From NCBI GenBank assembly GCA_965217815.1, contig CBDCJI010000001.1, positions 527,088-591,087 of the forward strand: a stretch of DNA of 64,000 nt. Direction: 5' to 3'. The notes beneath the pieces are model-generated. The model searched no databases. It was not told the DNA's origin and saw only the letters and a list, made by a program, of their open reading frames with translations. Position 1 is the stretch's first letter. The number at the start of each line of letters is the position of its first letter. This stretch comes from Chthoniobacterales bacterium. Its GTDB lineage: Bacteria; Verrucomicrobiota; Verrucomicrobiia; Chthoniobacterales; UBA10450. Below are positions 3,584-22,644 of this stretch, piece after piece. The translations under genes and the position numbers were made by a program.

Positions 3584-3675
3584 CCTGGCCGTGTATCGAG
3601 GGCGCGCGTTCGGCGCGGTTGCTCCGCAGCCTGCGCATCCGCGGAGTCGGTTGATGGCAGATTCATTTTCAACAA

Positions 3676-4023: not shown

Positions 4024-4046
4024 GCGTGGAGCGAATTCCGCCGCGA

Positions 4047-5237: not shown

Positions 5238-5303
5238 GCCCTCACTTTGTCACAAACTGTCACAAAGAGGCAAGCCAATTCGATTTACTATCGTAAAATA
5301 TTT

Positions 5304-5657
5304 GGAGGCGAGGGGAGTTGAACCCCTGTCCTGATCGCTGTCCCCGCGAGCTTCTACATGTGTAGCCGATGAGGATTTTTAGGGAGCGACAACAGCACCG
5401 GCACGTCGCCGTCTCCCGAGCCACCACGAAATTCCTTCACCGTCCGGCGCGGTCACTCCGCCGTCCGATTAGCCTGCTGTCCATGTCCCGAGCCGTAGCA
5501 GGCGTCCAGCCCGGGACATCGCAGTCAATTAAGCCGCGAGAGCGAGATCTTGGTGATCTGCATTTATTTTTTTTGGTCCGGATTTTAACGAGGCCAACGA
5601 ACCATCCTCGACATGCCGCCTGCGCTTCAAACAATCAGTCGAAACCAGTACGCCCCC
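5304..5657 (-). ncRNA. ssrA: tmRNA (transfer-messenger RNA)
   Basis: The minus strand starts GGGGGCGTACTGGTTTCGAC and ends GGGGTTCAACTCCCCTCGCCTCCA. The acceptor stem GGGGGCG/CGCCTCC includes the G3:U identity pair, and a T-arm is present. The internal segment GGCCTCGTTAAAATCCGGACCAAAAAAAATAAAT is followed by the tag frame GCA GAT CAC CAA GAT CTC GCT CTC GCG GCT TAA (ADHQDLALAA), parallel to the E. coli ssrA layout. The CCA end is not encoded. Confidence 0.92.
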
Positions 5658-5711
5658 GTTTTTCGGAGGAGGCAACGATAGCGCAAAGACAGATTCCTTC
5701 AACCCGCGTGA

Positions 5712-6990: not shown

Positions 6991-8889
6991 TCAGGCAGAG
7001 GCTTTGGCCAGCTCGGGGCGCGGCGCTGGTTTGACCGGACCGAGCGGGCTCCGCCAGGTGTGGAGCGGAAGCATGCCGATGAGCATCAGTAATACCTGGC
7101 TGAGGGCAAAGCCGATGAGCCAGGGGAAAGCGCTTTCCATGAAGCCGTAGGAGTGCAGACCGATCCCGAGCATGTTCACGCCAAACCAGGACCAGCTCGT
7201 GACGATGTTGCCGAAGATGGCCATGACCATGAGGCCGCGTTGCCGCACCAGTCCGCCCCAGCGGGCGTGCAGGATGATGGCGTTCCAGAGAACGATGAGG
7301 GCCGCGCCGTTTTCCTTCGGGTCCCAACCCCAGAAACGGCCCCAGGATTGATCGGCCCAGATGCCGCCGAGAATGGTGCCGACGAAGCTGAAGAGCGTGG
7401 CGAAACAAACGATCCCGTAAACCATGCGGCTGAGCGAACTCGCGGTCGCGCGATCGAGTGAGGGCGTGAAAGCGCCGCGCACGACGAAGGTGAGGGCGAG
7501 AAAACCGGCCAGGAAGGTGGAGGCATAACCAAGCGTGACCATGACGACGTGGGTGGCCAGCCAGACGTTGGTATCGAGGACGGCGCGCATCATTTCCATG
7601 GTGTCGCCGTCCATGGAGAGATGATGCGCGATGAGAAGGGTGAGGAAACCGATGGCCGCGGCGGTGGCGCTGCCGATGCCGTTGCGGAAGAATCGTTCGA
7701 GGAAAATCCCGAGGAGGACCGCGCCCCAGCCGATGAAGACGGCGGAGGAATAGAGATTGGTCACGGGCGGCCGGCCTTCCAGGTACATACGGGTGCCGAG
7801 CCCGGCGGTGTGGATGACGAAGGTGACGACGAGCAGGACGAAGGCGTAGCGGCCTAAGGTTTGTGGCCAGATGAGCCAGGAGGCGCAGGCGAGGAGAAAG
7901 ATCAGGACGTAGAGCACCATCGCGCTGTAAAAGGGCGCCAATTGGTTAAAGACGGTCTCGACCCGGGCCTTGCGCAGGCGGAGGGAGAAATGCTCCTGCA
8001 GCCAGTCGGTATAGCGCGCGACCGTTTTATTGAAAGTGGCGGGATCGTGAGCGGAGTAAGCCGTCGCCATCGTCGCCCAGGCGGAGACGGCCGGATGCAG
8101 ATTCCCCACGGTGATAAATTGCAAGACGCTCTCGCCCATCTTTCGCCACTGCAGTGGATCGTCGTTAGGCGGGACGGGCGGGATGGGGAAGAAATAACCG
8201 GTCTCAGCGAGAAAGGCGAGACTCTGCAAGGCCTCCGCGGTGATGCCGCTATTCATCGGCGTGGGCGAGGGATGGATGTTCGCGAGCAGGTCGTCGACCT
8301 GCGCTTGGAAGTTCTCCGTGCCGGCGACTTCGAGGCTGTTCTCGAGCCGATGATAAAGGGTCAGCCGCTCGAAGAGCTTGATGATGTCGCGCTGGAAAGG
8401 CGAGCGCAGTGGCGCCTCCACTTTTTGCGCGAGCTCGGCCTGTTGCTCGATCTCAGGCAAGTGGGCGGAAAGATCCAGGAAGGACCAATATTTATCCGGA
8501 TCGGGCAGCAGGCCGAGTGAGCCGAGGAAAGAACTGCCCGCGGCCTTGGTCGGAGCCCGGCCTAACGACGCGCGCAGGAGCGGGCTGCGAATGACAAAAA
8601 GTTTCCGCCGATCCGCTTCGCCCGACTTCATCATCACCTCCGCGAGCCAGTCGATCGGGGTCATCTCGCCGTGCTCGAGCCGGAGGGTCTGGTTGCCGTG
8701 GATGATGAGGAGGGAATTGCGCGCGATCGTGTCGAGCGGCTTGATCCGGCCATTCAAGAGCACCGGCAGGCGGCCGAAATTTTGCATCGCGAAACCGCCT
8801 CGCGTGTCGCGCTGCCCGAGCGGCGCGAGAACGTAGGCGAGCGTGAGGGCGACGATCAGCCAGATGACCCAAGCGCGTGTTTTCTTCAT
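6991..8889 (-). CDS. ccsA: Cytochrome c biogenesis protein CcsA/ResC (System II heme handling), long form
   Basis: Tryptophan-rich WWD motif WGRFWGWDPKENGAALIVLWN, many TM segments, and a 4-nt overlap with the upstream ccsB stop. Confidence 0.9.
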   Translation of the reverse strand: MKKTRAWVIWLIVALTLAYVLAPLGQRDTRGGFAMQNFGRLPVLLNGRIKPLDTIARNSLLIIHGNQTLRLEHGEMTPIDWLAEVMMKSGEADRRKLFVIRSPLLRASLGRAPTKAAGSSFLGSLGLLPDPDKYWSFLDLSAHLPEIEQQAELAQKVEAPLRSPFQRDIIKLFERLTLYHRLENSLEVAGTENFQAQVDDLLANIHPSPTPMNSGITAEALQSLAFLAETGYFFPIPPVPPNDDPLQWRKMGESVLQFITVGNLHPAVSAWATMATAYSAHDPATFNKTVARYTDWLQEHFSLRLRKARVETVFNQLAPFYSAMVLYVLIFLLACASWLIWPQTLGRYAFVLLVVTFVIHTAGLGTRMYLEGRPPVTNLYSSAVFIGWGAVLLGIFLERFFRNGIGSATAAAIGFLTLLIAHHLSMDGDTMEMMRAVLDTNVWLATHVVMVTLGYASTFLAGFLALTFVVRGAFTPSLDRATASSLSRMVYGIVCFATLFSFVGTILGGIWADQSWGRFWGWDPKENGAALIVLWNAIILHARWGGLVRQRGLMVMAIFGNIVTSWSWFGVNMLGIGLHSYGFMESAFPWLIGFALSQVLLMLIGMLPLHTWRSPLGPVKPAPRPELAKASA

Positions 8890-10058
8890 CGGCTTCGCTT
8901 TCTGAGAAAGCCAAACAAGTGCATCGAGAACTGCACGAGCAACCCGAGCCCGACCAGCGCGCAGGCGATATAGGGCAGGAGCATGGCCGGGTTTTTCACC
9001 ACCTGAAGAATGGTCGTCTGATCGTTGTTGTCGAAGCCGGACTGATAAAAAGTGAAGCCGCGATAGCGCAGCGGATCGTTCATGGAGATGAGGACCTCAC
9101 GGTTTTCGCCGCGCTCGAGATCGACCAGGCGGACGCGGCTGGAGAAGTTTTTCGGGATGTCGGTGCCGGCATAACGATCGTGCGAGAAGTGGATCAGGCT
9201 GAGCGCGAATTGCTTGTAGAAACGCCGTTGCCGCATGATCAGCTGGAAGGTGCGATCCCCCACCGCGAGCGGCTGCGGCTGCTCGATCGCGTTCGAGACG
9301 AGCCAGGTGCCTAACGAACCTTGGATGCCGTCGAGCTCGACGAAAGCCGCGCTCAAATCGCGCTCGTCATCCTTGACCGTGCGCGGGATTTCCGCGGCCA
9401 CCACACTCGTGCCGAAGCCGGTGGTGGCGGGCGAGGGCGGCGCCTCCGGTTCCTGCGCGCGCATGGCGAGGTGCGCGTTCGGGAGGAAACGGCGGATTTT
9501 GAGAGTGAAAGGCAGAGCCGGGTTTTGCAGCGTGCCGCCCTCGGCCAGGCGATCTTCGGGAATCGAGACCACCTGGTCGTAGTCGGGGTGAGTCGTCTCG
9601 ATGACGGCCAGCTCGACTTCACGCGGCGCTTCCGAGTAAGCGGAGGTCTGGCCATTATCGAGCCGCATTTGCGTTTCCCGAGCGAAGAGGCCGGTGAGCA
9701 ACTGGCCGATCAACAAAAGGACCACGCCGAGATGGAGCAGAAAGATGCCGATCTTCTTGCGCGAGAGTTGGAAACGGGTGGCATGGGCCGCGAGCAGGTT
9801 GAGGAGGAGGACCGTGCCTAACAAATAACCGCCGGGCAAAACCGGAATCTTCCAGTTCGCTCCGGCGGGCGACCAGAAAACGAAGAGGCTCTGAAAATAA
9901 CGCGCCTGCACCGCATGAATGCCGAGATGGACCTGCGAGAGCGTGCCAAAAAAAATCAGGAGCATTCCGATCCCGAGGCAGACGACGGTGAGCCGGAGGG
10001 AGGCGAGAAAGCGCAGCGGCCCCAGGAATTCGTTAGGCGAAGCGGTCGTCGCGGACAT
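8886..10058 (-). CDS. ccsB: Cytochrome c biogenesis protein CcsB/ResB
   Basis: ResB-like N-terminus LASLRLTVVCLGIGMLLIFFGTLSQV, a large soluble loop and a C-terminal TM (VKNPAMLLPYIACALVGLGLL). It is translationally coupled to ccsA. Confidence 0.85.
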   Translation of the reverse strand: MSATTASPNEFLGPLRFLASLRLTVVCLGIGMLLIFFGTLSQVHLGIHAVQARYFQSLFVFWSPAGANWKIPVLPGGYLLGTVLLLNLLAAHATRFQLSRKKIGIFLLHLGVVLLLIGQLLTGLFARETQMRLDNGQTSAYSEAPREVELAVIETTHPDYDQVVSIPEDRLAEGGTLQNPALPFTLKIRRFLPNAHLAMRAQEPEAPPSPATTGFGTSVVAAEIPRTVKDDERDLSAAFVELDGIQGSLGTWLVSNAIEQPQPLAVGDRTFQLIMRQRRFYKQFALSLIHFSHDRYAGTDIPKNFSSRVRLVDLERGENREVLISMNDPLRYRGFTFYQSGFDNNDQTTILQVVKNPAMLLPYIACALVGLGLLVQFSMHLFGFLRKRSR

Positions 10059-10185
10059 GATCAGGAAAATGACGAAGTGCGAAGTCCGAAATCCGAAGCA
10101 AACCCCAAACCCGAAAGACCAAACAAAAGCAGGCGCGGGGGGTGAATCCTTCGGGCTTCGCGCTTCGTTATTGTTTCGGGCTTCG

Positions 10186-11346
10186 TCATTCGGATTTAGT
10201 CATTTCCCTCGGAAGTTTCAAGCTGCGCAGAAAATCGAGAAAGGCGCTTTTTTGCGCCGCCACGGCAACGTCTTCGCCTGTCATTTTGATAAACCAGGAG
10301 CGCTCGTTCTCGTCCAAAATGGCGGCGAGAATGCGTTGCGAGCCGCCCGCCAGATCGACCACGAGGAAGTCGTGCCCGTTGGCGTTTACATGCTCGGCCG
10401 ACTTCGCCAGCGTATCCTCGTCGATCGGCGGCAGCTTCACCTGCCCGCGCCAGCGATTGACGTTGGCCAGGTCGCCGCCGGCGATTCCGGCGAGGCTGAC
10501 CACGGAGACGTCCGCCTTTTTTCCGTTGGGCGCGACGGCGTCGAAGCTGGCCAGGCGCATGGTCGAGAGCGGTTTCTCTTGCCAGCCGGCCGGCAACTGG
10601 TAGGCCAGCGGGGCGCCAGCCGCGGGTGCAATCGGGGGCGGAGTGGGGGCGTTCGTGCTCCCACTGTCGGCCGTCATCGGCGAGATGCTCGCCCCGGACT
10701 CTTCGGGATGGACGCTCCCGAGGAATTGCCGGAAAGCGTTCCGCTGCGCTTCCACGAGCTGATCCGGCCCCATCATTTTGAAAAACCAGGTCTCGCCCGG
10801 GAGCGGAAAAATCCCGCCGAGGATGCGCGACTTCGCTCCGTCCGGCGTGATCGCCTGCGCGCTCACCAGATCGACGAAAAACAGGTCGCGCCCCGCCACC
10901 GGCATGGGAGTGCCGACTTCGGCTTCGTTGCCAATCGGCGGAAGCTTGAGCTGATCGCGCCAGCGATTCACGTTCGCGAGCAGACCGCCCGCCTGCTCCG
11001 GAAACGAAATCACCGAGACGTCCGCCGTTTTTCCGTCGGGCCCTTTGACTTTGAAGCTGCCTTTACGAAAACCGCTGGCCGGTTGTTCTTCCCAAGCGGC
11101 GGGCGCGGTCCAATGGACTGCCGGCGCGGCCGCGGAATTGAGCGCGGGCGGGGCCGGAGGCGTCTCCTTGGGGATGCGGTAAACCGTAATCTTGTCGTCC
11201 CCGCCGCGGTCACAGCCGGCGCAGAAGAGAAGCGCGGCCAGGAGCGGCGACAGCCTAACGAGTTTGTGCGGAACGATAAACAACGGCTTCACGGGCAGGT
11301 TGCGAAGTACCTGCCAGCGGCGACGGAAGTCAAGAGCAAGGGGCAT
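10186..11346 (-). CDS. Lipoprotein with two tandem homologous domains, function unknown
   Basis: Lipobox LLFCAGC. Two internal repeats each contain K(T/K)ADVSV(I/V)S...ANVNRWR(D/G)Q(L/V)KLPPI ... FFK/FIKMTG. The true start may be an internal GTG. Confidence 0.7.
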   Translation of the reverse strand: MPLALDFRRRWQVLRNLPVKPLFIVPHKLVRLSPLLAALLFCAGCDRGGDDKITVYRIPKETPPAPPALNSAAAPAVHWTAPAAWEEQPASGFRKGSFKVKGPDGKTADVSVISFPEQAGGLLANVNRWRDQLKLPPIGNEAEVGTPMPVAGRDLFFVDLVSAQAITPDGAKSRILGGIFPLPGETWFFKMMGPDQLVEAQRNAFRQFLGSVHPEESGASISPMTADSGSTNAPTPPPIAPAAGAPLAYQLPAGWQEKPLSTMRLASFDAVAPNGKKADVSVVSLAGIAGGDLANVNRWRGQVKLPPIDEDTLAKSAEHVNANGHDFLVVDLAGGSQRILAAILDENERSWFIKMTGEDVAVAAQKSAFLDFLRSLKLPREMTKSE

Positions 11347-11403
11347 GGCGTCGAGGAATCCCGCCAGCTCTGGCGTTCAAGAAAAACGGGCTGGAAGCGA
11401 TCG

Positions 11404-12654
11404 TTAGGCGTCGAGGACGACATCGCTCTTGGGAGCTCCGATGCAGGTTAAACGTGTCCCGGGTTCGGTCTGGAAATCGGATTTTTCGATGTAATCGACT
11501 TCGCCCGAGAAGACCGCGACCTGGCAGGTGCCGCAACTGCCGGCGCGGCAGCCGCTCGGGATGCTGACGCCATTCGCTTCAGCCAAATCGAGCAGGCTGG
11601 TGACGTCGCCGCACCATTGCGCGGTCTTGCCGCTTTTCTTGAATTGCACGGAGTAGCCGGTGGCGATTTTCGCTTCGGGCGAGACGACGGCGGCGACCTT
11701 TTTCACGCTGGAGGGGCCGAAAGTTTCGTAGTGGATGTTCTTCTCGGGAACGTTCCATTCCTTCAGGCCTTCGGTCACATCCTGCATCATCGGCCCCGGG
11801 CCGCAGAGGTAGTAATCGAAGTTATTCGAGGGCAGCACTTTTTTGAAAAGCTCGACCGAGATGCGCGCTTCGTGATGGTAATCGCGCCCCAACTCGTAAT
11901 CCGGGTCGGGCTTACTCGCGCAGACTTGCAGGTGCACGTTCGGATGCTCGCGCGCGATCGCTTCGAGGTGCTCCTTCATGATGTGTTCGGAGCGGTTGCG
12001 AATGCCGTGGAAGAACCAGATCTCGCGCCGCGAACCCTGGGCGACGAGCGTGTTAAGCATGGCGAGGACGGGGGTGAGGCCGATGCCGCTGCCGATGAGG
12101 ACGACGCCGCCGGTGCCCGCCGGGTCGAGGTAAAATTGGCCGGACGGCGCTTTGACATCGAGGATGTCGCCTTCCTTGACCTGGTCGTAGAAGAAGGTAG
12201 AGGCGAGCCCCGGCGGATGGTCCTTATCGCGCGGCGGGATGCGTTTGATGGTGACGCGATAACTATCGGGCCGCGGGCCGTCGGAGAGGCTGTAGCAACG
12301 GACGATCGGCTTGGTTTGGCCGGGGATGTCGAGGTGAAAAGTGAGGTATTGGCCGGGCAGAAAACCGGGAAGGGCTTTCTTATCGTGCGGCGCGAGGTGG
12401 AAGGAGCAGATGTCTTCGCACTCGACGACTTTGCGACCGACGAGGAATTTGCGCCAGCCGTTCCAGGGCAAACCGCTCTCGGCTTTTTGCCGGCGCAGGT
12501 CGCGCATCATTTCGAGCTCGGTTTTGAGCAGCTCGAGGGAAAGTTCGGCCTGCCGATTTTGGCCGCTGAGCCGGCGCAGATTCGCCGCCGTCACCAGCCC
12601 GAGCTGGATCAGTCCGCCGCCGACAAGAAGGCCGCCAAGTGCTTCCGGGATCAT
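11404..12654 (-). CDS. Membrane-anchored FAD/NAD(P)-binding oxidoreductase with a C-terminal plant-type 2Fe-2S ferredoxin domain
   Basis: N-terminal TM helix, RCYSLSD (RxYS FAD motif), GSGIGLTPVLAML (NAD(P) site), CGPGPMM, and the C-terminal CRAGSCGTCQVAV 2Fe-2S motif. Confidence 0.85.
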   Translation of the reverse strand: MIPEALGGLLVGGGLIQLGLVTAANLRRLSGQNRQAELSLELLKTELEMMRDLRRQKAESGLPWNGWRKFLVGRKVVECEDICSFHLAPHDKKALPGFLPGQYLTFHLDIPGQTKPIVRCYSLSDGPRPDSYRVTIKRIPPRDKDHPPGLASTFFYDQVKEGDILDVKAPSGQFYLDPAGTGGVVLIGSGIGLTPVLAMLNTLVAQGSRREIWFFHGIRNRSEHIMKEHLEAIAREHPNVHLQVCASKPDPDYELGRDYHHEARISVELFKKVLPSNNFDYYLCGPGPMMQDVTEGLKEWNVPEKNIHYETFGPSSVKKVAAVVSPEAKIATGYSVQFKKSGKTAQWCGDVTSLLDLAEANGVSIPSGCRAGSCGTCQVAVFSGEVDYIEKSDFQTEPGTRLTCIGAPKSDVVLDA

Positions 12655-12664
12655 GCGCGAAATG

Positions 12665-14323
12665 CTAAAACTTCAGGAGGAGTTCGGAACGCAAACCGTA
12701 GGCGGTATCCCGGTCCTCCGGGGCGCCGATGAAGGCATCAAAGACGAGCACGAGATGCTGATTCAACTTCATCTGATAGCGCACGGCGGTGGCGATCTCG
12801 TTCGGCTGGGTGGGGCCAAAAAAATCAGGATCTCGCGTCCTCACCCGGCCGCCCACTTCAAAGACCAGCTGTTTATCGGTCGTGCCCAGAAAAATCTGGT
12901 AACCGAGGGCGAGGCCGACGGCGTCGTTGGCCCGATTGCCGAGAGGCGCGCCATAAGAGCCGAGACCCTGAGCGGCGAAAAGAATACCGGTCTGCCCAAG
13001 CGGGCCGCCCCGGTCGCCCCCGCGGGCGGCGGAGGAGTAATTGTCGATCCCCCAAAAGGCGTTGAGAAAGGCGATGTTTTTGCTTTCCGGCACGGTGATG
13101 GAGAACTGCTGGAAAAGGAGCACACCATTGCTCACGGCCGCCGTCTCGCGATCGAGCGCAAAGGAGGCATTTATCCGCGTGGTCGAGTTAAAAAGTCCGA
13201 TCCGCCGGGTATCGCCCACCCCGAGATATACGCCATCGCCGCCCGTCGGGTCGTCGGCGTTCACGTAGGCAAAATCGAGATCGATCGTGTCTTCGGCGTA
13301 GTCGGCGGTGCTGAAGAGACCGAAGAGCTTGGCGCTGCTGTCCCTCAAGTTGTCGTTCCGGTTGAGCTCGTTCCAGGCGAAGATGCCGGTCGTACGAAAT
13401 GAGGAGGAGCCGAGGAAAAACTCTGACGTTTTCGTGATGCCGATGGCGTCGATCACATCCTCATTGATCATGATGCCGTCCTGGAAGCTGAGGGGCTGCC
13501 GCCCGATCGAGAATTGGTAGTCGAGCCTCTTGGTGTCGTTCGGATCGAGGTTCGGAAAGAGTTCGCCGAAATCACCCTGGAAGAAGAGAGTGGTGACGTA
13601 GCTGTTGAGCGCGTTCTGCGGGCCGTCCCGCGGCTGAAAGCGGTAGCCGCTGTAGGCTTTCCCGTTGCGATCGAGCGGGCGAATGCCGATGAGCAGCCGC
13701 TCCGTCGGGGTGAGGTAGAGGTTGCCGTAAAGATCGAGCCGATTCGCGAACTCGGTGATCTGTCGCCCGTTGCCGTTGTCGAAAGTTTGCAGAGCGGTGC
13801 GCGCGGTCCCGAAAACGAGAAAGACCGGCTGCCAGACGGCGCCGGTCGGGATCTTGAACCCGGGCGCGATGGGGCCTTTGCCCAGAAAAGGATTTTGCCC
13901 GATCTCGATGATCGGTTTCGGGCGATCGGGAAATCCGGCAAGCTTGAGCGGAATCGCCTGGTCGCTCAGGGCGCTGCTCCCGCGCTGGGCGGGCGAGCCG
14001 CTGCGGGTGCGGAAGAGATTGAAGAGGCCGGGTTTTCTTTCCGGCGGGTGCGCCGTGGCGCTCTCGTTCGGCGAGGCGAACCCGGTCTTGCCCGGGGCGG
14101 TCGGGCTGGCTGGGTTCGTCTCTGGCGCACCGCTGGCAGCGCGCGGGACGTTTTCCAGATTGGTCCCGCAGTTGCTGCAAAAGTTAAAGCTCGCCGGCAT
14201 GGAGTGCCCGCAGGTCGGGCAGACGACGGTCTCGCCGGCCGCGGCGGGCTCGGCCAGGGCGCACGGCAGCGGGTTCGCGAAGGCGAAAAGACAGAGCAGC
14301 AGCGTCGTTAAGCTGGAGCGCAT
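12665..14323 (-). CDS. Putative outer-membrane beta-barrel (porin-like) protein with an N-terminal zinc-ribbon-like CxxC..CxxC segment
   Basis: Signal peptide; alternating beta-strand-like composition rich in G/Y/F/N; C-terminal beta-signal LRSELLLKF with a terminal Phe; CPTCGH...CSNCG follows the signal peptide. Confidence 0.6.
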   Translation of the reverse strand: MRSSLTTLLLCLFAFANPLPCALAEPAAAGETVVCPTCGHSMPASFNFCSNCGTNLENVPRAASGAPETNPASPTAPGKTGFASPNESATAHPPERKPGLFNLFRTRSGSPAQRGSSALSDQAIPLKLAGFPDRPKPIIEIGQNPFLGKGPIAPGFKIPTGAVWQPVFLVFGTARTALQTFDNGNGRQITEFANRLDLYGNLYLTPTERLLIGIRPLDRNGKAYSGYRFQPRDGPQNALNSYVTTLFFQGDFGELFPNLDPNDTKRLDYQFSIGRQPLSFQDGIMINEDVIDAIGITKTSEFFLGSSSFRTTGIFAWNELNRNDNLRDSSAKLFGLFSTADYAEDTIDLDFAYVNADDPTGGDGVYLGVGDTRRIGLFNSTTRINASFALDRETAAVSNGVLLFQQFSITVPESKNIAFLNAFWGIDNYSSAARGGDRGGPLGQTGILFAAQGLGSYGAPLGNRANDAVGLALGYQIFLGTTDKQLVFEVGGRVRTRDPDFFGPTQPNEIATAVRYQMKLNQHLVLVFDAFIGAPEDRDTAYGLRSELLLKF

Positions 14324-14333
14324 AAGTGGGCGG

Positions 14334-16547
14334 TCAGGGTTCGGCGAGGCGGGTGGCGGCGGCCACTTTTTCCGGAGCGGCGGCCGCGGCGACTTTGTTT
14401 TCGCGAAGTTTGCGCAGCGCTTCTTCCGACTCCGGCAGGAAGGGCTTGGTCGGCGGCGCCATGATCTCTCGCTCGGTCGGCCGCAAATCGATCACAGCCG
14501 GACCGGGCGGGAGGACGACGGTGCGATTCCAAAGGGTCTGCGAACGTTCCACCACCCGATCGGCGATCGATTTAGGCGACATGAAATAATCGAAGCCCAC
14601 TTCCGCGATGTCGCCGACCAGATTTACCGGCACCATCTGGGTGATGAACTTGACGTTCACCCGGTAAGGCGGAGCGCCGGTCAACTGCCTCGCGGTCACC
14701 TTATAGGGCGCCCAGCGGAATCCGTTAGGCGGGAGGACGATGCTCTGTTTGCGCGCGCCCATCGGCCGGGCGAGCAGGGCGTCGGCGTTGGTCGCCGGCC
14801 GCACGTAAGGCAGCGGATCGACGCTTTTGTTCGTCGGCAAAATCTGCACCCGCTCGCCGCCGCGCAGGAGGGTGACGAGGAATTTCGATTGCAGGCTGAA
14901 GAGGTACTTATCGAGCGGCAGCTTAAGATCGTGGACGTAGGCGGACTCGATGTCGCGGACGTCGCCATTCGGGTCGCGATCGCCGGAGACAAAGACAGCG
15001 CGGCCATGGCGATCGGTCACCACGACCTGGAGAAAGTTGGCCCGCTCCGCGTCGAAACCGGTCGGGGCGCCGTGCCCATCGGTGCCGTTGGCCACTTTGA
15101 TCTTAAATTTAATGCCGCGGGGGTCGTTCTGTTCGACGACCAAATCCTGCAGGCGAAATCCGCGGCGGAGAAGCTGGTAACGCTGCTGACTCGCCTCCTC
15201 CAGTTTGGCGAATTGATCGTCGAGAATGGCGCGGGCGTCGTAGCGATCGTCGATCGATTGCCAGCGCGGCGGGAATTTATAATCGGCCGGCGCCTTTTTC
15301 TCGAAAGCATCCGCGCCCCAGCCGGCGCGATAGTCGAATTGCAACCACTCCCGCATCGTCGCGGTCTGCTGCGCCTTCACGTTGAAGGGGAAAAGTCCCG
15401 GGTGAATGACGGAATAATCCGGCCCGGCGAAGCGATGATCGGTCAGCTTGCGCGGCGGGGTCGGCTGGTCGCCGACCATAGCGGCCGGGCCGAAAGCGTA
15501 ACCCGATTTGATGCCGGGGATTTTGCCCATATGGCAATCCTGGCAGGTCTCGCCGCGGGCGTTGGCGGGGGAGTTTTTAAACTGCGAAAAGGCCTCTTCA
15601 AGTCGGAAGCCGTTAAGCAAATTGACGTCGTGGCAGGTGCCGCAGAAGCCGGATTTTTCCAGCGGATCGAACTTGATGACGTTGGTGTGAATCGCACGCC
15701 CGACCTCGCCGCGCTTGGTCACGACCTGGAATTTATCCGGCTGGTTGAGCACCTGTTTGAGGATTTTATTTCCCTTCGGACCGAAGACCGGCTCGAAAAG
15801 ATCGCCTTCCTGGATGGCGGTGCGGCCGCTCACTTTGCCGTAATTATTTTTCACCCGATGGCAGACGATGCAGCTGATGCCTTCACGCGAAGTCGGGTTG
15901 CGATCCATGTTGCTGGCGAAGATCGGTTCCTGCAGCTGCATGCCTACCTGGGTATGGCAGCGAATGCAGAAGTCGCCGTTCGTGCCCGAGGTGCGCTTGT
16001 CGATCGTCGCCTGCATGGTGTTAAAGATCGGGCTGATCTGCGCGTAGGCGTGCTGGGAGACGGACCATTGCCGGAACTGCGTCGGATGGCAGGTCGCGCA
16101 AGTGGAGGCGGAGGGGAACTTGTTCTCCACCAAAAGCTTGGCGTGAGCCGCGGCGGCGTTGCCTTCGGTAGCGGCGCCCGTCGCGGTTTTGGGCGGTGGC
16201 GGGGGCGCGTTGCCCGGCAGGAGAAGTTGATCGGGCATCGGCTCATTGGTCGTAGGCGCGCCGGGAGGAAGCAGCAGATCGTCGTCGGAGGAGGGAGCCG
16301 CGGGTTGCGTCCCGGGAGCGGAGGGAGCGAGCAGATCATCGTCGGTCGAAGTGGCCGCCGCAGCCGGGGCCGGCGGGCTCGGGACGAGCAGATCATCCGC
16401 TTCCTTCGAAGCAGGCGTGGTCAGGGGCGCCGGAGCGCTTGGTGCAGGCGTCGGAGTCGTCGGCGTTTGCGCCCGGAGGTGCCCCGGGGCGGCCCAAGCC
16501 AGGCCGAAAATGGTTAACCTCACGAATTGCCGATCCCACCATCTCAT
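14334..16547 (-). CDS. Pentaheme c-type cytochrome with an N-terminal Pro/Ala/Thr-rich linker
   Basis: Signal peptide and five CXXCH motifs (CATCH, CIRCH, CIVCH, CGTCH, CQDCH). Confidence 0.9.
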   Translation of the reverse strand: MRWWDRQFVRLTIFGLAWAAPGHLRAQTPTTPTPAPSAPAPLTTPASKEADDLLVPSPPAPAAAATSTDDDLLAPSAPGTQPAAPSSDDDLLLPPGAPTTNEPMPDQLLLPGNAPPPPPKTATGAATEGNAAAAHAKLLVENKFPSASTCATCHPTQFRQWSVSQHAYAQISPIFNTMQATIDKRTSGTNGDFCIRCHTQVGMQLQEPIFASNMDRNPTSREGISCIVCHRVKNNYGKVSGRTAIQEGDLFEPVFGPKGNKILKQVLNQPDKFQVVTKRGEVGRAIHTNVIKFDPLEKSGFCGTCHDVNLLNGFRLEEAFSQFKNSPANARGETCQDCHMGKIPGIKSGYAFGPAAMVGDQPTPPRKLTDHRFAGPDYSVIHPGLFPFNVKAQQTATMREWLQFDYRAGWGADAFEKKAPADYKFPPRWQSIDDRYDARAILDDQFAKLEEASQQRYQLLRRGFRLQDLVVEQNDPRGIKFKIKVANGTDGHGAPTGFDAERANFLQVVVTDRHGRAVFVSGDRDPNGDVRDIESAYVHDLKLPLDKYLFSLQSKFLVTLLRGGERVQILPTNKSVDPLPYVRPATNADALLARPMGARKQSIVLPPNGFRWAPYKVTARQLTGAPPYRVNVKFITQMVPVNLVGDIAEVGFDYFMSPKSIADRVVERSQTLWNRTVVLPPGPAVIDLRPTEREIMAPPTKPFLPESEEALRKLRENKVAAAAAPEKVAAATRLAEP

Positions 16548-16689
16548 AAGCGGCTGATCTTTTTTCTCTTAACCCCTTCGCGTCAATCGAAATATGATTT
16601 TTTTGGGAGAAAAATGCTTGCTGCCGAAGAGAAAGATCGTTTAAAAAAATCGAACACCGTTTCACGAACCTGGGAAACCGCCTTTCGAT
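16548..16689. promoter_or_regulatory. AT-rich divergent intergenic region between the two cytochrome operons (probable bidirectional promoter region)
   Basis: 142 bp markedly AT-richer than its surroundings, lying between divergently oriented first genes. No specific operator could be assigned. Confidence 0.3.
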
Positions 16690-17685
16690 ATGATAAATCT
16701 ACGCCAGCCCCTTCTCCTTTTTGCTCTCACTTTCGGCCTCGGCGTCTCGCTCTCTTTGGGGGCACAGGTGCACGAACTGGATCCCGCCAAAGTGGTGGGG
16801 TCGCAGAAGTGCGGCGAATGTCACAAATACGAATTGGAAGCGTGGAAAGGCACGCCCCACTTTGCCACTTTCGACTCCATGCATCGCAGCCCGGCGGGCC
16901 AGAAGATCGCCGGCGCGCTCGGCATTAAACGGATCAAATCGGAAAGCCTGTGCCTGACCTGCCACTACACCGTGCAGATGAAAGGCGGCGCGGCCGAGCC
17001 GATCTCGGGCGTCTCCTGTGAGTCCTGCCACGGCGCGGCGGCCGACTGGGTGAACATTCACAACGACAAAAAACTCTCGAAAGAGGAGCGGCGCACGAAA
17101 TCGGCGGCGGCCGGCATGATTCGTCCCGACGACCTCGCGGCGGTCGCGGCCAACTGTTACCAATGCCATCTCGTGCCTAACGAAAAGCTGGTGAACACCG
17201 GCGGGCACGCCGCGGGCAGCGCCGGCTTTGAATTGGTCGCCTGGTCGCAAGGGATGGTGCGGCACAACTTCCTCACGTCCGATGGCAGCGAAGGCAAAGT
17301 GAATAAAGAAGACGACCAGAACCGCCTGCGCATGATTTTCGCGACCGGCGCCATTCTCGATCTGGAATACAGCCTGCGCGGCGTGGCCAGCGCGACCGAG
17401 AAAGCGACTTATGGCATCACCATGGCGCAACGGGCGAACGCGCTCCGCAAGAAAGTGGCCGCGATCCAGCAAGCCGCGCCGACCGACGAGATGGCGCAGA
17501 TCCTGACCGTGGCCAACGGCGCCGCCCTCAAGTTGAACAACAAAGCGCCGCTCGAAGAAGCCGCCGATAAGGTGGCCGAGCTGGGCAAGAAATTTTCCGC
17601 GAGTGAGACCGGCGACAAACTCGCGGGCCTCGATCCGATGCTTCCAAAGCCGGCTGATTACCGCGGGAAAATTTACCAACCCTAA
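16690..17685 (+). CDS. Tetraheme c-type cytochrome
   Basis: Signal peptide and four CXXCH motifs (CGECH, CLTCH, CESCH, CYQCH). Confidence 0.9.
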   Translation: MINLRQPLLLFALTFGLGVSLSLGAQVHELDPAKVVGSQKCGECHKYELEAWKGTPHFATFDSMHRSPAGQKIAGALGIKRIKSESLCLTCHYTVQMKGGAAEPISGVSCESCHGAAADWVNIHNDKKLSKEERRTKSAAAGMIRPDDLAAVAANCYQCHLVPNEKLVNTGGHAAGSAGFELVAWSQGMVRHNFLTSDGSEGKVNKEDDQNRLRMIFATGAILDLEYSLRGVASATEKATYGITMAQRANALRKKVAAIQQAAPTDEMAQILTVANGAALKLNNKAPLEEAADKVAELGKKFSASETGDKLAGLDPMLPKPADYRGKIYQP

Positions 17686-17748
17686 CGCCTCGCGACCGCA
17701 TGACCGTCGTCGCCTGATCCTGCGCGCGCCGGCCCGGTCGTCTTCGCC

Positions 17749-19485
17749 ATGGCCGATTTCCTGACCCGCATTTCCCGGCCACAGCGGTGGGACGTTCCCT
17801 TCGACCTCGCCATGGGCGAAGCCGAAGTCGCGCGGCTCCTCGAGCTCGCGCCGCTCTCGACTTTCGACGAGACGCGTTTCCCGTCGACGATTCCGTTGCG
17901 CGGGATTTTGCGCAACGACACGCGCCTGCGCCATTTCGAGCCGGGCGACATCATCGTGCGGGAAGGCGATTACGGGAGCTCCGCCTTTCTCATTCTGAGC
18001 GGGAGCGTCCGCGTCATGCTCGACTCTCTGCCCGCGGGACAACTCGGCCGGCGGCCGCCGCAAAAGAAAGGGTTTCTCGAATCGATCGCCCAGCTTTGGT
18101 CCCAGCCGAAATATCCGGAAGTGCGTGATTATGCGGGCGGCAAACTCATGAGCAGCGCTGACGCCGGGAGCATTCGCTCGCGCCAGTCGACCGGCGCGGA
18201 AGTGCGCGTTTTTCTCCAGGATGTCCCCGGCGTTCTGGAAAAAAATCACACCGCGCAACTGGGCGAGGGCGAACTTTTCGGCGAAATCGCGGCCCTCGCC
18301 CGCACCCCGCGCACAGCGACGGTGATCGCGGAAAGTCCGGCCGAGCTCCTCGAACTGCGCTGGCAAGGGCTGCGCGACATCCGCAAATACGCGCCGGAAT
18401 GGAAGGCGCATATCGATCGGCTCTATCGCGAACGCAGTCTGGCCAAGCATTTGCAGGAAACGCCACTGCTAAAAAACCTCTCCGCGGAAGATTTGCGGGA
18501 AGTCGTCGTGCACACCCAGTTTGAGAGTTACGGCGATTTCGAGTGGAATGCTTCCTACCGCACCCTCCGTGAAGCGTCCGCCCAAGAGCGTCTCGCCAAA
18601 GAACCAGTCATCGCGCGGGAAGGCGATTACCCGAATGGGTTAATTCTTATCCGCAGCGGCTTCGCCCGGCTCAGCCGCAAATACAATCATGGCGAACGCA
18701 CCGTCAGTTACCTCGGCAAAGGCGAATACTTCGGGCTTTCCTCGCTCCTGTGCGACGCGGCCTTCGAGGAGCCGGCCGGACTTCAATTTTCCCTGCGCGC
18801 CATCGGTTACGTAGACATTCTCGTCATCCCGACGCCCATTTTCGACCAATACATCGCCCCGCATTTTCGCCCGGAGGAGATTCTGGAATTACGGCAGCGC
18901 GTCCGGCGCGAGAGCGAGATCAATCTCGGGCGCGAGGCCGAGGCGACCTTCGGCCCGGAGATGATCGAGTTCCTGGTCGAGGAACGTTACGTCAACGGCA
19001 CCGCGACCATGTTGATCGATCTCGACCGCTGCACGCGTTGCGACGATTGCGTGCGCGCCTGCGCCGCGAGCCACGATAACAATCCGAAATTCCTCCGCCA
19101 CGGCCGCGTCCAGAATGGGATCATGGTGGCCAACGCCTGCATGCATTGTGTCGATCCGGTCTGCATGATCGGCTGCCCCACGGGAGCGATTCACCGCGAG
19201 TCGATCGAGGGCCAGGTCGTGATCAACGACCTCACCTGCGTGGGCTGCGCGACCTGCGCCAACAGTTGCCCCTACGACAACATTCAGATGGTCGAAATTC
19301 GCGATGCCGGCGGTCGCTTCATCCTCGATGAAGCGACCCGGACGCCCATCCTCAAGGCGACGAAATGCGACCTCTGCGTCGATCAACTCGGCGGCCCGGC
19401 CTGTGTCCGCGCCTGCCCACACGATGCCCTCATCCGCGCGAACATGCAGGACACCGCAAAACTGGCGAGGTGGCTCGACCGGTGA
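17749..19485 (+). CDS. Fusion protein: two cyclic-nucleotide-binding domains plus an NrfC/DmsB-like four-cluster 4Fe-4S ferredoxin domain
   Basis: cNMP-binding signatures: GEGELFGEIAALARTPRTATV, and a second domain with GKGEYFG. Cys clusters: CTRCDDCVRAC, CMHCVDPVCMIGCP, CVGCATCANSCP, CDLCVD..CVRACP. No Tat or Sec signal is visible. Confidence 0.9.
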   Translation: MADFLTRISRPQRWDVPFDLAMGEAEVARLLELAPLSTFDETRFPSTIPLRGILRNDTRLRHFEPGDIIVREGDYGSSAFLILSGSVRVMLDSLPAGQLGRRPPQKKGFLESIAQLWSQPKYPEVRDYAGGKLMSSADAGSIRSRQSTGAEVRVFLQDVPGVLEKNHTAQLGEGELFGEIAALARTPRTATVIAESPAELLELRWQGLRDIRKYAPEWKAHIDRLYRERSLAKHLQETPLLKNLSAEDLREVVVHTQFESYGDFEWNASYRTLREASAQERLAKEPVIAREGDYPNGLILIRSGFARLSRKYNHGERTVSYLGKGEYFGLSSLLCDAAFEEPAGLQFSLRAIGYVDILVIPTPIFDQYIAPHFRPEEILELRQRVRRESEINLGREAEATFGPEMIEFLVEERYVNGTATMLIDLDRCTRCDDCVRACAASHDNNPKFLRHGRVQNGIMVANACMHCVDPVCMIGCPTGAIHRESIEGQVVINDLTCVGCATCANSCPYDNIQMVEIRDAGGRFILDEATRTPILKATKCDLCVDQLGGPACVRACPHDALIRANMQDTAKLARWLDR

Positions 19486-20303
19486 GTCCGCTTCTCGTTA
19501 GGCGAATTGGTCTCTCCCTCGGGCTCGTCCTCCTCTCCGCCGCGGTCTTTTTCGTCTGGCGCGTGGGGCGCGCGGCTTTGCGGCCGGATGGCATTTACAC
19601 CGGATTACTCCTCTTTTTCCTGATCCTCGGGCTGACCCTTTTTAACGCCCGCAAAAAGCTTCCTTTCCTTCCGCTGATCCGCGCCTCGGTCTGGCTGCAA
19701 ATTCACATCTACGCCGGCTGGTTTTGCCTTTTTGTTTTTCTCCTGCACGTTCGCTTTCGCCTTCCCCAAGGCGCTTTCGAGAGCACGCTCGCGCTCGTTT
19801 TTTGGGTCGTTATGCTGAGCGGGTTCTTCGGGCTCTTCATCAGTCGCGACCTCCCTCCGCGGATGGCGCGTTCCGGCGAACCGCTCCTCTACGAGCGCAT
19901 TCCCGGATTCCGTCTCCGGATTCAGCGCGAGGTCGAGGAACTGGTGCGGCAAGCCGAGCGCGAGACGGAATCTTCCACCCTGGGAACGTTTTATGTGCAA
20001 TACCTGCGCGATTTTTTTGTCCATCGCCCGAGCGCCTTTTCGGCCCTGCGCCGGGGCGAGCGGAAGTGGCACGCCCTGCTCGCCGAAACCAACGCGCTCG
20101 ACCGCTATTTGAACGACCGGGAAAAGGCGATCGCGCTCGAGCTGCGCGATTGGATCGAGACCAAGCAAAATCTCGATTTCCAGGACGCAGCCCAACGCCT
20201 CCTAAAATTCTGGCTCTTCGTGCACATTCCTTTTACCTACAGCCTGATTCTACTCGGCCTCGCCCACGGGATCGTGGCGACGCTTTACGCGGGGAGGTGG
20301 TGA
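19482..20303 (+). CDS. Polytopic membrane protein with conserved-looking intramembrane histidines, function unknown
   Basis: The GTG start overlaps the upstream stop (GTGA). About 5 hydrophobic helices carry His residues within them (LQIHIYAG, FLLHVRF, FVHIPF, LAHGIV). The track ORF start at 19365 overlaps the preceding gene and was rejected. Confidence 0.65.
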   Translation: MSPLLVRRIGLSLGLVLLSAAVFFVWRVGRAALRPDGIYTGLLLFFLILGLTLFNARKKLPFLPLIRASVWLQIHIYAGWFCLFVFLLHVRFRLPQGAFESTLALVFWVVMLSGFFGLFISRDLPPRMARSGEPLLYERIPGFRLRIQREVEELVRQAERETESSTLGTFYVQYLRDFFVHRPSAFSALRRGERKWHALLAETNALDRYLNDREKAIALELRDWIETKQNLDFQDAAQRLLKFWLFVHIPFTYSLILLGLAHGIVATLYAGRW

Positions 20304-20304
20304 A

Positions 20305-22644
20305 ATGCAGCGACCGCTCGACCCGCTCCGCTTTAAACAAAACCGCTACGAACGGCCCAATCAGGATTGGGTTTGCGGCCACGCCGCGGAAGGGCACGCC
20401 TGCCCGCTCGGGCCCGATGAGCGCGGCCACTGCCGCCCGACCGGCGAATGCCTTCCCGCCAAAAAAGGCGATCGCTGGATGTGCATGCGGAGCGACGCCG
20501 CCGGCGGCAAGTGCAGCGAAGGTCCGCTGCCTAACGGCGCTTGCGCGCACCCGATCCCGCCCTGCCAGCCGCTGCCGTCGCTCCGCCGGTCGCGCGCGAG
20601 CCTGGTCTGGCTGGCCGTCGCCCTCACGCTCGGGGCGCTCCTTATTTTGCTCGGGAGCACGCGCCTGCGCGAGAGCTGGGCCGATCCCGGTCCGCTCACC
20701 CGGGCCCACGCCACCTCCGCTTCGCAATGCCGCGATTGCCACGCGGTCGACGGGGCCGGCTCCGTCCAGCTCGCGGCCTTTACTTCCCTCGAGGCGAAGC
20801 GACGGGCGGACGGCCAGCTTTGTTTGAAATGTCACGCCCTCGGCGAGCAACCCTTCGCGCCGCACAGCGTCACGCCCATCCGCCTGGTCGCGTTGGAAAA
20901 GAAAATCGCGGCCCTGCCTAACGAGTCGCGCAAAAGCTCCCCGCTCCTGCGGGCCAGCCATGGACTGAACCCGAGCGCGGCGGGCGACGGCCAGCTTGCC
21001 TGCCTGACCTGCCATCAGGAACATCACGGCCGCAACTTCGATCTAAAAAAACTCTCCGACGCACAATGCCAGAGTTGCCACGCGCTCCAGTTCGCCAGTT
21101 TTGCCCATGGGCATCCGGAGTTTTCCCAGTATCCGTACAGCCGGCGCACGCCGATTTTTTTCGATCACGCGAGCCATTTGGGCGAACACTTTTCCGCCAT
21201 GAAATCGAAGGCGCCCGACTCCTGCCAAGGCTGCCATCTGCCCGATGCGGCCGGACGTTTCATGAAGGTGAAAAGTTTCAGCCAAACCTGCGCTGCCTGC
21301 CACGAAGCACAGATCGAAGGCGAAGGCATGACGACCAAAGGCGTGGCCTTTTTCACCGTCCCGGGAATCGATGTGGAGACGCTTGCGGGCAAGGGAATCA
21401 GCGTGGGCGAATGGCCAAAATTTGCCGATCAGAAGATCACGCCCTTCATGGAGCTGCTCCTGCGGCGGCAGGCGGGTCTGGGCGCGGTCCTCGACCAGTT
21501 GCAAGGGGTCGACCTGCTTGACCTGACCAAAGCAACGCCGGACCAGCTCGCGGCCGCGGAAAAATTTGCCTGGGGCGTGAAGGAGTTGCTTTTCCACCTC
21601 GTCGTCGACGGGCAATCTTATCTGCGCACCGAGTTGAAAGGCGGGATCGTACCCGCCGGCATCGAAGTCCCGCGCTCCGCCCTGCTCGCGGCCCAGCGCG
21701 ATTGGATGCCGAATCTGCTGAAGGACGTGCCGAACCACGAACAGGGCCTCGCTCCCCCGCTGCCCGAGCGCACCGCGACGCCCGCACCGGCCGCTTCGCC
21801 TAACGAAAAGCAGGCGGACGGCGACTCGTCTTTGCTTGGCGGCGAAGACCTCGCGGCCACGCCTGCGCCCGCGCCGGCGGGCGGGGGGAACTTGTTAGCC
21901 GGAGGAGACGACGATCTCACGGCGCCTCCTTCCTCGCCCAGCCCGGCACCGGCCTCTGATGACCTCACGAGCGGGGGCGATCTGCTCGACGCAGCCGCCC
22001 CTCCCGCCCCCTCCGTCACGCCCGTCCCCACCCCGGCGGCGGAACCAAAACCGGCCGAAGAATGGGTCACGGCCGGCGGTTGGTATCGGCCACAGGACAG
22101 CTTTTCGCTTTATTACCGGCCAAGTGGCCATAGCGATCCCTTTCTCGTCGCGTGGCTGACGACGGCGGCGAAATGCACGAGCGACTCCGCGGCGCCGGCC
22201 GCGCGCGTCGTTTTCCGCCGGATGGCCGATCCGCAAACGGCTGGTCTTTGTCTGAAATGTCACACCGTCACGGTCCGGGGCGAGGCTTTGCAGGTGAATT
22301 GGTTGCCTAACGAAGCGCTGCCGAAAAAGAAAGGTTTCACCACCTTCCGCCACACCACGCATCTCAGCCTCTTCGGCAATACGGCCTGCGAAACCTGTCA
22401 CGCCCTCAATCCCAAGGCGGAGTATGCGAAATATTTTTCGGGCGAGAGCGGCGCGCTGGCCGAGCGCGAGCCGAGCCATTTCCAGAGCAACTTCGCCCCT
22501 CTCTCGAAGACGCTCTGCCTCCAATGCCACCAGCCGAAAGTGGCCGGCGACTCGTGCCTTCTTTGTCATCGCTATCACGCCGAAGCGACCGATGGCGAAA
22601 TCGCGGGCCGGAATCGATTGCGGCCATTGTTAGGCCAGAAATAA
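20305..22644 (+). CDS. Membrane-anchored decaheme c-type cytochrome with an N-terminal Cys/His-rich segment
   Basis: Ten CXXCH motifs (CRDCH, CLKCH, CLTCH, CQSCH, CQGCH, CAACH, CLKCH, CETCH, CLQCH, CLLCH). About 95 aa of Cys/His-rich N-terminus precede RRSRAS and the single TM LVWLAVALTLGALLILLG. The gene starts 1 nt after the upstream stop. Confidence 0.9.
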   Translation: MQRPLDPLRFKQNRYERPNQDWVCGHAAEGHACPLGPDERGHCRPTGECLPAKKGDRWMCMRSDAAGGKCSEGPLPNGACAHPIPPCQPLPSLRRSRASLVWLAVALTLGALLILLGSTRLRESWADPGPLTRAHATSASQCRDCHAVDGAGSVQLAAFTSLEAKRRADGQLCLKCHALGEQPFAPHSVTPIRLVALEKKIAALPNESRKSSPLLRASHGLNPSAAGDGQLACLTCHQEHHGRNFDLKKLSDAQCQSCHALQFASFAHGHPEFSQYPYSRRTPIFFDHASHLGEHFSAMKSKAPDSCQGCHLPDAAGRFMKVKSFSQTCAACHEAQIEGEGMTTKGVAFFTVPGIDVETLAGKGISVGEWPKFADQKITPFMELLLRRQAGLGAVLDQLQGVDLLDLTKATPDQLAAAEKFAWGVKELLFHLVVDGQSYLRTELKGGIVPAGIEVPRSALLAAQRDWMPNLLKDVPNHEQGLAPPLPERTATPAPAASPNEKQADGDSSLLGGEDLAATPAPAPAGGGNLLAGGDDDLTAPPSSPSPAPASDDLTSGGDLLDAAAPPAPSVTPVPTPAAEPKPAEEWVTAGGWYRPQDSFSLYYRPSGHSDPFLVAWLTTAAKCTSDSAAPAARVVFRRMADPQTAGLCLKCHTVTVRGEALQVNWLPNEALPKKKGFTTFRHTTHLSLFGNTACETCHALNPKAEYAKYFSGESGALAEREPSHFQSNFAPLSKTLCLQCHQPKVAGDSCLLCHRYHAEATDGEIAGRNRLRPLLGQK

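Follow-up and report, generated by a model that had tools for sequence, protein, structure and literature searches.

What is a pentaheme cytochrome c for when its gene lies next to genes for an outer-membrane barrel, a membrane-bound flavoprotein and a pair of cytochrome c maturation proteins? Six minus-strand genes raise this question in a 64,000-nt stretch of DNA (hereafter the window) from a Chthoniobacterales bacterium of the phylum Verrucomicrobiota (assembly GCA_965217815.1, contig CBDCJI010000001.1, positions 527,088 to 591,087). The original prediction, made from the letters of the window, took all six for one operon encoding a possibly undescribed electron conduit of the porin-cytochrome type, with its own CcsBA synthase. 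We find that three of these genes form part of a copy of the already named ptdABCDEFG cluster, which here lies beside a general ccsBA pair. For the cluster itself, we infer from domain content and topology, with a probability of roughly 0.55, an NAD(P)H-driven chain delivering electrons to the pentaheme cytochrome PtdA, which would reduce a solute admitted by the barrel PtdB.

The six minus-strand genes, between positions 6991 and 16547, are real and encode the expected domains in the predicted order, from the cytochrome gene to ccsA. What had been missed is that four plus-strand genes (16690-22644) diverge from ptdA across a 142-bp spacer. Here the cluster falls into a minus-strand operon, ptdCBA, and a divergent plus-strand operon, ptdDEFG. 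Its heme counts (5, 4 and 10) and domain set agree with the description of ptdABCDEFG, named for its penta-, tetra- and decaheme cytochromes (Elbon et al., bioRxiv 10.1101/2023.11.21.568154, hereafter the preprint). There, PtdB is a porin encoded directly after ptdA, PtdC a flavin adenine dinucleotide (FAD)/NAD(P) oxidoreductase, PtdD a tetraheme cytochrome, PtdE a cyclic nucleotide monophosphate (cNMP)-binding protein with 4Fe-4S clusters, PtdF a ferric-reductase-like membrane protein and PtdG a decaheme cytochrome. The carriers reported in the preprint include marine Alpha- and Gammaproteobacteria, Nitrospirales, Planctomycetes and others; its Table S7 lists loci of eight phyla, with Roseibium among the genera and a marine Verrucomicrobiales metagenome-assembled genome (MAG) among the carriers. 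Our literature search returned no description of the cluster besides the preprint, and the system can no longer be called undescribed.

To place the window copy among its relatives, we scanned one genome per species with a PtdB alignment, which returned 80 loci, and queried these with ten window proteins by tblastn. In Roseibium (loci L070 and L073), ptdA to ptdG are colinear, and the seven window proteins are 33-54% identical to their counterparts, with PtdA at the upper end (54%). The full set of seven was also matched in Nitrospinae, SAR324, Binatia, Planctomycetes, Opitutales and Verrucomicrobiales, while a Rhodothermales MAG and a 5.6-Mb ENA contig hold a pentaheme gene, a Pfam-less gene of ~500 codons and D-, E-, F- and G-type genes in colinear order. 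In every locus holding both genes (78/78), ptdA lies immediately upstream of ptdB on the same strand, an arrangement that is therefore not due to chance. PtdA alone has more than 2400 relatives in a protein search, and the best matches point to a host within Chthoniobacterales. Judged by sequence and gene order, then, the window cluster is the Chthoniobacterales copy of ptdABCDEFG, and the conserved envelope redox module foreseen for this locus, combining a pentaheme cytochrome, a barrel and an NAD(P)H-type reductase, does exist. The window copy has all seven components of the published cluster, with the same domain content and heme numbers and the gene order of Roseibium. It differs in being split into two divergent operons, in adjoining a lipoprotein gene and ccsBA, in an extra zinc-ribbon on PtdB and in a soil-type rather than saline host.

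As for PtdB, it carries a leader sequence and ends in LLLKF, matches no Pfam or NCBIfam family besides Zn_Ribbon_1, and gave nothing meaningful in a PDB sequence search. The AlphaFold2 model, run on a 40-sequence alignment, has a mean predicted local distance difference test (pLDDT) score of 78.9, and scores are mostly above 90 over residues 160-552, which form a beta-barrel. DSSP assigns 19 strands to this region, that is, 18 or 20 membrane strands, and a highly conserved 40-residue segment without strands (residues 428-467) forms a loop. When the model was compared with the PDB by Foldseek, the top matches were Campylobacter jejuni MOMP, AlgE, chitoporin and OccK/OprD, with E-values of about 1e-10 and template modelling scores (TM-scores) of 0.55-0.65 on the target. 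All are 18-strand solute channels, and no Mtr-type barrel appears among the top 50 matches. Model and structural neighbours agree that the 552-residue protein is an outer-membrane barrel, as had been proposed. Between the signal peptide and the barrel, residues 31-57 (window 14153-14233, minus strand) form a four-Cys zinc-ribbon (CPTC...CSNC) found only in the Chthoniobacterales clade of PtdB, which from its position is presumably periplasmic.

These properties bear directly on the view that Ptd is a true porin-cytochrome conduit, in which a multiheme protein would sit inside PtdB and pass electrons to insoluble Fe(III)/Mn(IV) oxides, humics or electrodes. The idea was already raised by the authors of the preprint. 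It would account for the strict coupling of ptdA and ptdB, which are 10 nt apart in the window, and it fits the presence of three multiheme cytochromes in the cluster and a weak Pfam match to MtrC/MtrF domains II/IV. A conserved disordered segment at the N terminus of PtdB, together with acidic arrays in PtdA described below, could serve for docking. As in MtrCAB, PioAB and OmaB-OmbB-OmcB, moreover, a barrel gene is paired with multiheme cytochrome genes. The barrel itself, however, speaks for a channel. MtrB, the sheath of MtrA, has 26 strands (PDB 6R2Q), and the barrels of Mtr-type conduits have 20-26 as against about 18-20 in PtdB. By standard barrel geometry, 18 strands would leave a lumen of roughly 2 nm before any loops fold into it, which would be too small for a multiheme domain or for the ~600-residue, two-domain PtdA. 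We therefore read PtdB as a solute or substrate channel that is, on the predicted structure, probably too narrow for cytochrome insertion of the Mtr type. The other hallmarks of Mtr and porin-cytochrome systems are likewise missing from ptd, which has neither an MtrA-type sheathed decaheme cytochrome nor a surface lipoprotein cytochrome of the MtrC/OmcB type. Its decaheme cytochrome, PtdG, is held in the inner membrane by an N-terminal transmembrane (TM) helix; the lipoprotein encoded nearby has no CXXCH motif and belongs to the maturation genes; PtdA resembles soluble cytochromes; and many carriers, such as Roseibium, Nitrospinae and Verrucomicrobia, are aerobic. We consider a conduit of this type unlikely, and the evidence favors a channel working with a periplasmic reductase. 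The remark in the original prediction that the components are not those of MtrABC or OmaB-OmbB-OmcB was well founded.

Two other pairings of multiheme cytochromes (MHCs) with porins were considered as candidates and set aside. One is the octaheme porin-MHC cluster of freshwater Verrucomicrobia, with 8-heme cytochromes and porins that have at least 20 predicted transmembrane motifs (He et al. 2017, PMC5615132); the other comprises the MHC/porin loci of Limisphaera (PMC13608581), which are not ptd.

PtdA, the proposed end point of the chain, has an N-terminal hydrophobic leader, exactly five CXXCH motifs and no further Cys, and is assigned by Pfam to Cytochrome_C554. A profile search of the PDB identified the pentaheme cytochrome c552 of Thermochromatium tepidum (5ze8, E 2.5e-10), in an alignment spanning the first three heme motifs and a loop of the immunoglobulin-like (Ig-like) domain ('DGHgvPTG' versus 'QPHAMPTG'). 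The same structure was the sole significant Foldseek match of the PtdA model (E 1.9e-5, TM-score 0.53 on the target). Like c552, PtdA consists of a pentaheme domain and an Ig-like domain with an H..PTG loop; c552, however, is a soluble protein of 435 residues, whereas the core of PtdA is about 170 residues longer, includes an acidic repeat linker and comes with an obligatory barrel partner.

The sole characterized member of this fold group is MccSep, a periplasmic polysulfide reductase with Sec325 on the loop of its Ig-like domain and a His/Cys-ligated heme 2 (PMC13510729). It is encoded in the Geobacter ExtHIJKL cluster (MccSep being ExtKL), where, as in ptd, a pentaheme cytochrome with a C-terminal Ig-like domain is found beside a porin (ExtI) and multiheme cytochromes (PMC13510729, PMC5877670, PMC6148476). 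The PtdA profile aligns with MccSep (9wt8) in three colinear blocks, each weak, and a GH..P.G loop of the Ig-like domain is common to both proteins. The profile search reached MccSep, whereas phmmer queries with the Ig-like region of PtdA alone or with the c552 loop peptide did not. MccSep has Sec325 and the heme-2 ligand Cys239, whereas PtdA is devoid of Sec and of free Cys. In the alignment, whose E-value is weak, Sec325 falls on the invariant Phe498, His319 on His492 and Cys239 on Leu316, within the invariant motif NGFRLEE. The MccSep active site is therefore not kept in PtdA: the Sec/Cys of the D-G-U-P loop has no counterpart at the aligned position, and no free Cys is available to serve a His/Cys-ligated catalytic heme 2. 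These comparisons place PtdA in the c552/ExtKL(MccSep) fold group, apparently without the MccSep active site.

Immediately after its signal peptide, PtdA also carries a tandem acidic array of 'DDLL'-type motifs (residues ~45-115; window ~16200-16415, minus strand), of which the preprint makes no mention. There are 3-4 copies in the window and up to 9 elsewhere (for example GDDLLGG, DDLLSEP and GDSLLDLVDEE). The array is kept in kind across at least six lineages (L070, L024, L032, L071, L079 and L037 among the loci), and similar motifs occur in a linker between hemes of PtdG (residues ~500-565). It may be a docking or cation-binding array.

The remaining proteins suggest how electrons could reach PtdA. 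PtdC matches FAD_binding_6, NAD_binding_1 and Fer2 in Pfam, and the four Cys expected for a 2Fe-2S cluster (C369, C374, C377 and C404) are conserved. Its N-terminal TM helix (residues 5-24) is followed by basic residues, which argues that the NAD(P)H/FAD/2Fe-2S part is in the cytoplasm. In clusters without ptdC (L001 and Rhodothermales L002), a different flavoprotein with Pyr_redox_2 and Fer2 domains is present, and coupling to pyridine nucleotides therefore looks like a core property of ptd. PtdE, which has neither a leader nor a TM segment, matches cNMP_binding over three stretches as well as Fer4 families. Its 16 conserved Cys fall into four groups of the CxxCxxCxxxC type, which by Cys count makes four [4Fe-4S] sites as against the two stated in the preprint. 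PtdF, which probably starts near 19470, has two His pairs (H114/H128 and H287/H301) that do not vary among 51 orthologues; the members of each pair lie 14 residues apart on one TM helix. The Pfam result for PtdF is a weak match to DUF4405. PtdD has four CXXCH motifs and four conserved distal His, and matches Cytochrome_C554 (E 2.6e-16). PtdG has ten CXXCH motifs, as do 36 of 37 full-length orthologues, and in both cytochromes the conserved His suffice to give every heme two His ligands. Upstream of the TM helix of PtdG (residues 96-121) lies a domain of 95 residues (window 20305-20590, plus strand) with no Pfam match. Its eight invariant Cys (24, 33, 43, 49, 60, 70, 80 and 87) are spaced ~6-10 residues apart without forming a CxxC motif, and W22 and Y15 are invariant as well. 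The predicted topology puts the ten hemes outside and this candidate metal- or cluster-binding domain on the cytoplasmic side.

In the mechanism that we favor, cytoplasmic NAD(P)H would reduce PtdC, first its FAD and then its 2Fe-2S cluster, and electrons would pass to PtdE, a four-cluster ferredoxin in which the cNMP-binding domains probably act as a gate. Two b hemes of PtdF, held by the four invariant His, would take the electrons across the inner membrane, and a relay of PtdG (decaheme, membrane-anchored) and PtdD (tetraheme, soluble) would lead them through the periplasm. There, PtdA, with its pentaheme and Ig-like domains, would act as terminal reductase of a small solute entering through PtdB, for which Fe(III) chelates and N-, S-, Se- or O-oxidants are candidates. 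The CcsBA pair would mature the Ptd cytochromes along with every other cytochrome of the cell. The scheme recalls NOX/FRE and MsrQ-Fre, in which a pyridine-nucleotide flavoprotein feeds a bis-His di-heme membrane protein and, through it, an extracytoplasmic acceptor. The likeness is one of mechanism only, and in ptd each part is a polypeptide of its own, and Fe-S and multiheme relays stand between the parts. Electron input also sets ptd apart from Ext, in which a Rieske/cytochrome b pair takes the place of the NAD(P)H/Fe-S/b-heme module.

Since such a cofactor chain is reversible in principle, electrons might also flow inward. PtdA would then oxidize a periplasmic donor (hydroxylamine, NO, sulfide/thiosulfate or Fe(II)) and pass electrons via PtdD and PtdG to PtdF, and from there to NAD(P)+ through PtdE and PtdC, or to the quinone pool at PtdF. 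The low-potential c552 of a sulfur bacterium is among the relatives of PtdA, and ptd is carried by nitrite oxidizers and highly transcribed in an ocean oxygen-deficient zone, according to the preprint. The bioenergetics are less accommodating. The membrane potential favors outward electron movement and not the reverse, so that inward flow through a di-heme b protein would have to oppose it. Reduction of NAD(P)+ would, by established bioenergetics, need a donor of very low potential. Evidence of a quinone site was not obtained, and the carriers are mostly organoheterotrophs. We regard inward flow as improbable.

Several points nevertheless weigh against an NAD(P)H-driven reductase supplied through PtdB. 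The lumen of PtdB is an estimate from strand count and structural neighbors and not from coordinates, and the AlphaFold2 model of PtdA, beta-rich in its C-terminal half, is of moderate quality (pLDDT 64). With six conserved His outside the motifs for five hemes, PtdA may have bis-His ligation throughout, in which case it would serve purely to carry electrons and lack an open catalytic site. The two b hemes of PtdF, putatively stacked across the membrane, are read from the pattern of its His. An hhalign comparison of the PtdF profile with Escherichia coli MsrQ (probability 0.2%) and YodB gave no significant similarity, and sequence similarity of PtdF to FRD or b561 could not be shown. The outward direction of electron flow is likewise one that we infer, and the authors of the preprint call the function of ptd 'completely unknown'.

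A link to cyclic nucleotides is suggested by the surroundings of ptd in other genomes. Genes for CHASE2-adenylate/guanylate cyclases adjoin the cluster in about 10 loci of several phyla, among them Puniceicoccaceae/Opitutaceae, Fuerstiella, SAR324 and Planctomycetaceae (L020 12582-14729, L024 12599-14749, and also L049-L058, L079 and L082), in line with control of PtdE by cNMP. No such gene is found in the window. Neighboring genes are otherwise mostly lineage-specific (sulfatase, CstA, aldehyde dehydrogenase, DUF1501), and the CHASE2 cyclase alone recurs across phyla. The largest 'family' in this survey consisted of antisense open reading frames of the ptd genes, an artefact of high GC content, and was discarded. 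Within the window, the spacer between ptdA and ptdD has a GC content of 42%, compared with about 62% around it, and holds the sole sigma-70-like match of the region. Two promoter-like blocks, GCAAG(C/T)ATTTTTC and TTTTGAATTGACG, are kept in the spacers of 10 Chthoniobacterales loci (the window and nine others), in an alignment of which no Fur or FNR box was recognized.

The coordinates and main properties of the features are collected in Table 1.

Table 1. The ptd cluster and the adjoining maturation genes, with positions in the window
Feature	Position	Strand	Description
ptdA	14334..16547	-	737 aa; periplasmic pentaheme cytochrome c; acidic DDLL-repeat linker, C-terminal Ig-like beta-sandwich
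ptdB	12665..14323	-	552 aa; outer-membrane beta-barrel, about 18-20 strands; zinc-ribbon, conserved loop
ptdC	11404..12654	-	416 aa; membrane-anchored NAD(P)H flavoprotein with C-terminal plant-type 2Fe-2S domain
ptdA/ptdD intergenic region	16548..16689	.	AT-rich, divergent; probably bidirectional promoter
ptdD	16690..17685	+	periplasmic tetraheme cytochrome, c554-like
ptdE	17749..19485	+	cytoplasmic; cNMP-binding domains and four-cluster [4Fe-4S] ferredoxin module
ptdF	19365..20303	+	five-TM inner-membrane protein with two invariant His pairs; putative di-heme b carrier
ptdG	20305..22644	+	779 aa; inner-membrane-anchored decaheme cytochrome (6+4 hemes)
lipoprotein gene	10186..11346	-	386 aa; two tandem ~140-aa domains
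ccsB/resB	8886..10058	-	Pfam ResB; System II cytochrome c synthase subunit
ccsA/resC	6991..8889	-	Cytochrom_C_asm; TIGR03144; ~330-aa N-terminal periplasmic extension

Downstream of ptdC, the lipoprotein, ccsB and ccsA genes form a trio whose last two members encode a System II synthase, comprising a ResB-family subunit and a CcsA with a WWD domain. CcsA matches TIGR03144 with an E-value of 7.6e-35, and its WGxxWGWD motif is present as WGRFWGWD. The lipoprotein, which has a lipobox Cys45 that is invariant in 23 orthologues, arose by tandem duplication (internal repeat identity 44%, E 8e-35). Both halves carry GG.LANVNRWR.Q..LPP and W.FK..G and no conserved His, Met or Cys, and searches of Pfam, NCBIfam and PDB sequences yielded no family and no meaningful match. 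It always precedes ResB-CcsA in Verrucomicrobiota, and may be an uncharacterized accessory protein of System II.

That all six minus-strand genes should make up one functional operon, with the lipoprotein as a Ptd subunit and CcsBA dedicated to an unusual heme site as in NrfI/CcsA1, was the natural reading of the window. The genes share a strand; the gaps are short (-4, 127, 57, 10 and 10 nt from the ccsA side to the ptdA side) and free of terminator-like sites; and three orders of Verrucomicrobiota share the arrangement ptdC-lipoprotein-resB-ccsA. Relatives of the window largely refute it, and we regard it as very improbable. In the synteny table, the trio follows ptdC only in Verrucomicrobiota and is not found within 10 kb of ptd in any other phylum. 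Within Chthoniobacterales the lipoprotein family is commoner than ptd, and in three genomes with close homologues (L083, L084 and L085) the trio is intact while the ptd genes are absent. Both flanks of the window cluster (matched at 22847-23221 and 10216-11511 of the window) are colinear with L083 and L085, which leaves the 11.3 kb of ptd as the sole difference. In L085, moreover, the lipoprotein gene is preceded by a frameshifted remnant of ~110 bp (9738-9845), which corresponds to the last ~37 codons of ptdC and shares its TAA stop. We read this as a deletion scar, and ptd was therefore lost recently while the maturation genes were kept. Whether or not ptd is present, a block of DNA immediately before the lipoprotein gene is conserved, a hint that this gene has its own promoter; co-transcription of ptdCBA with the trio in the window is possible.

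Nor do the cytochromes call for a special synthase, because each of the 19 heme sites in ptd has the canonical CXXCH motif and none reads CXXCK or CXnCH; a dedicated synthase of the NrfI/CcsA1 type would be expected to occur only with a special substrate bearing a non-canonical motif. Since relatives that lack ptd keep the trio at the corresponding syntenic position, CcsBA is not dedicated. As judged from these loci, the trio is a separate conserved module of Verrucomicrobiota for general cytochrome c maturation, and the supposed dedicated synthase is removed as a false lead. The original prediction had itself named findings that would undermine it: a 552-residue protein that is no barrel, a lack of co-transcription or of synteny in relatives, or a cytochrome of a well-known soluble enzyme family outside envelope electron transfer. 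These findings undermine it in part: the barrel is real, but the trio persists in relatives without ptd and does not accompany ptd outside Verrucomicrobiota, and PtdA is akin to the soluble c552/MccSep group.

On the far side of ccsA, positions 35-6506 hold genes for a TrwC relaxase/helicase (35-2854) and a tyrosine integrase (4047-5237), a tmRNA (5302-5657, minus strand), which is the sole Rfam match, and an AbiEii toxin gene (5712-6506). The integrase gene follows the 3' end of the tmRNA and the toxin gene lies on its other side, and the segment looks like a mobile element integrated at ssrA, right next to ccsA. In L085, kinase genes lie between ccsA and a tmRNA 97% identical to this one.

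Six Verrucomicrobiaceae and Limisphaerales loci (L047, L060, L062, L067, L077 and L080) hold a ptdA-ptdB pair that has diverged (37-43% identity), accompanied by a divergent ptdD-like gene only, with no ptdC, ptdE, ptdF or ptdG within 10 kb. Such a pair may be a minimal paralogue that draws its electrons from a different source. In two of these loci (L047 and L060), a gene for a repeat-rich secreted protein of ~1700 residues lies upstream of the pair.

The ptd cluster is among the most widespread multiheme gene clusters lacking an assigned role. It is common in soil Chthoniobacterales and is therefore not limited to saline habitats. A barrel of the channel type, together with an NAD(P)H-linked cytoplasmic side, shifts the question from a mineral reduced outside the cell to a solute reduced in the periplasm. 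More tentatively, and at somewhat less than even odds, Ptd could be a new class of non-respiratory periplasmic reductase machine, cNMP-gated, NAD(P)H-powered, equipped with its own outer-membrane channel and spread over at least eight phyla of aerobic soil and marine bacteria. In such a machine, a flavin, a 2Fe-2S cluster, four [4Fe-4S] clusters, two transmembrane b hemes and 14 relay c hemes would supply a pentaheme enzyme. If so, its possible roles would include reductive iron acquisition or the removal of N, S or O oxidants, and both the conserved DDLL repeats of PtdA and the cytoplasmic 8-Cys domain of PtdG would count as new modules for assembly or cofactors.

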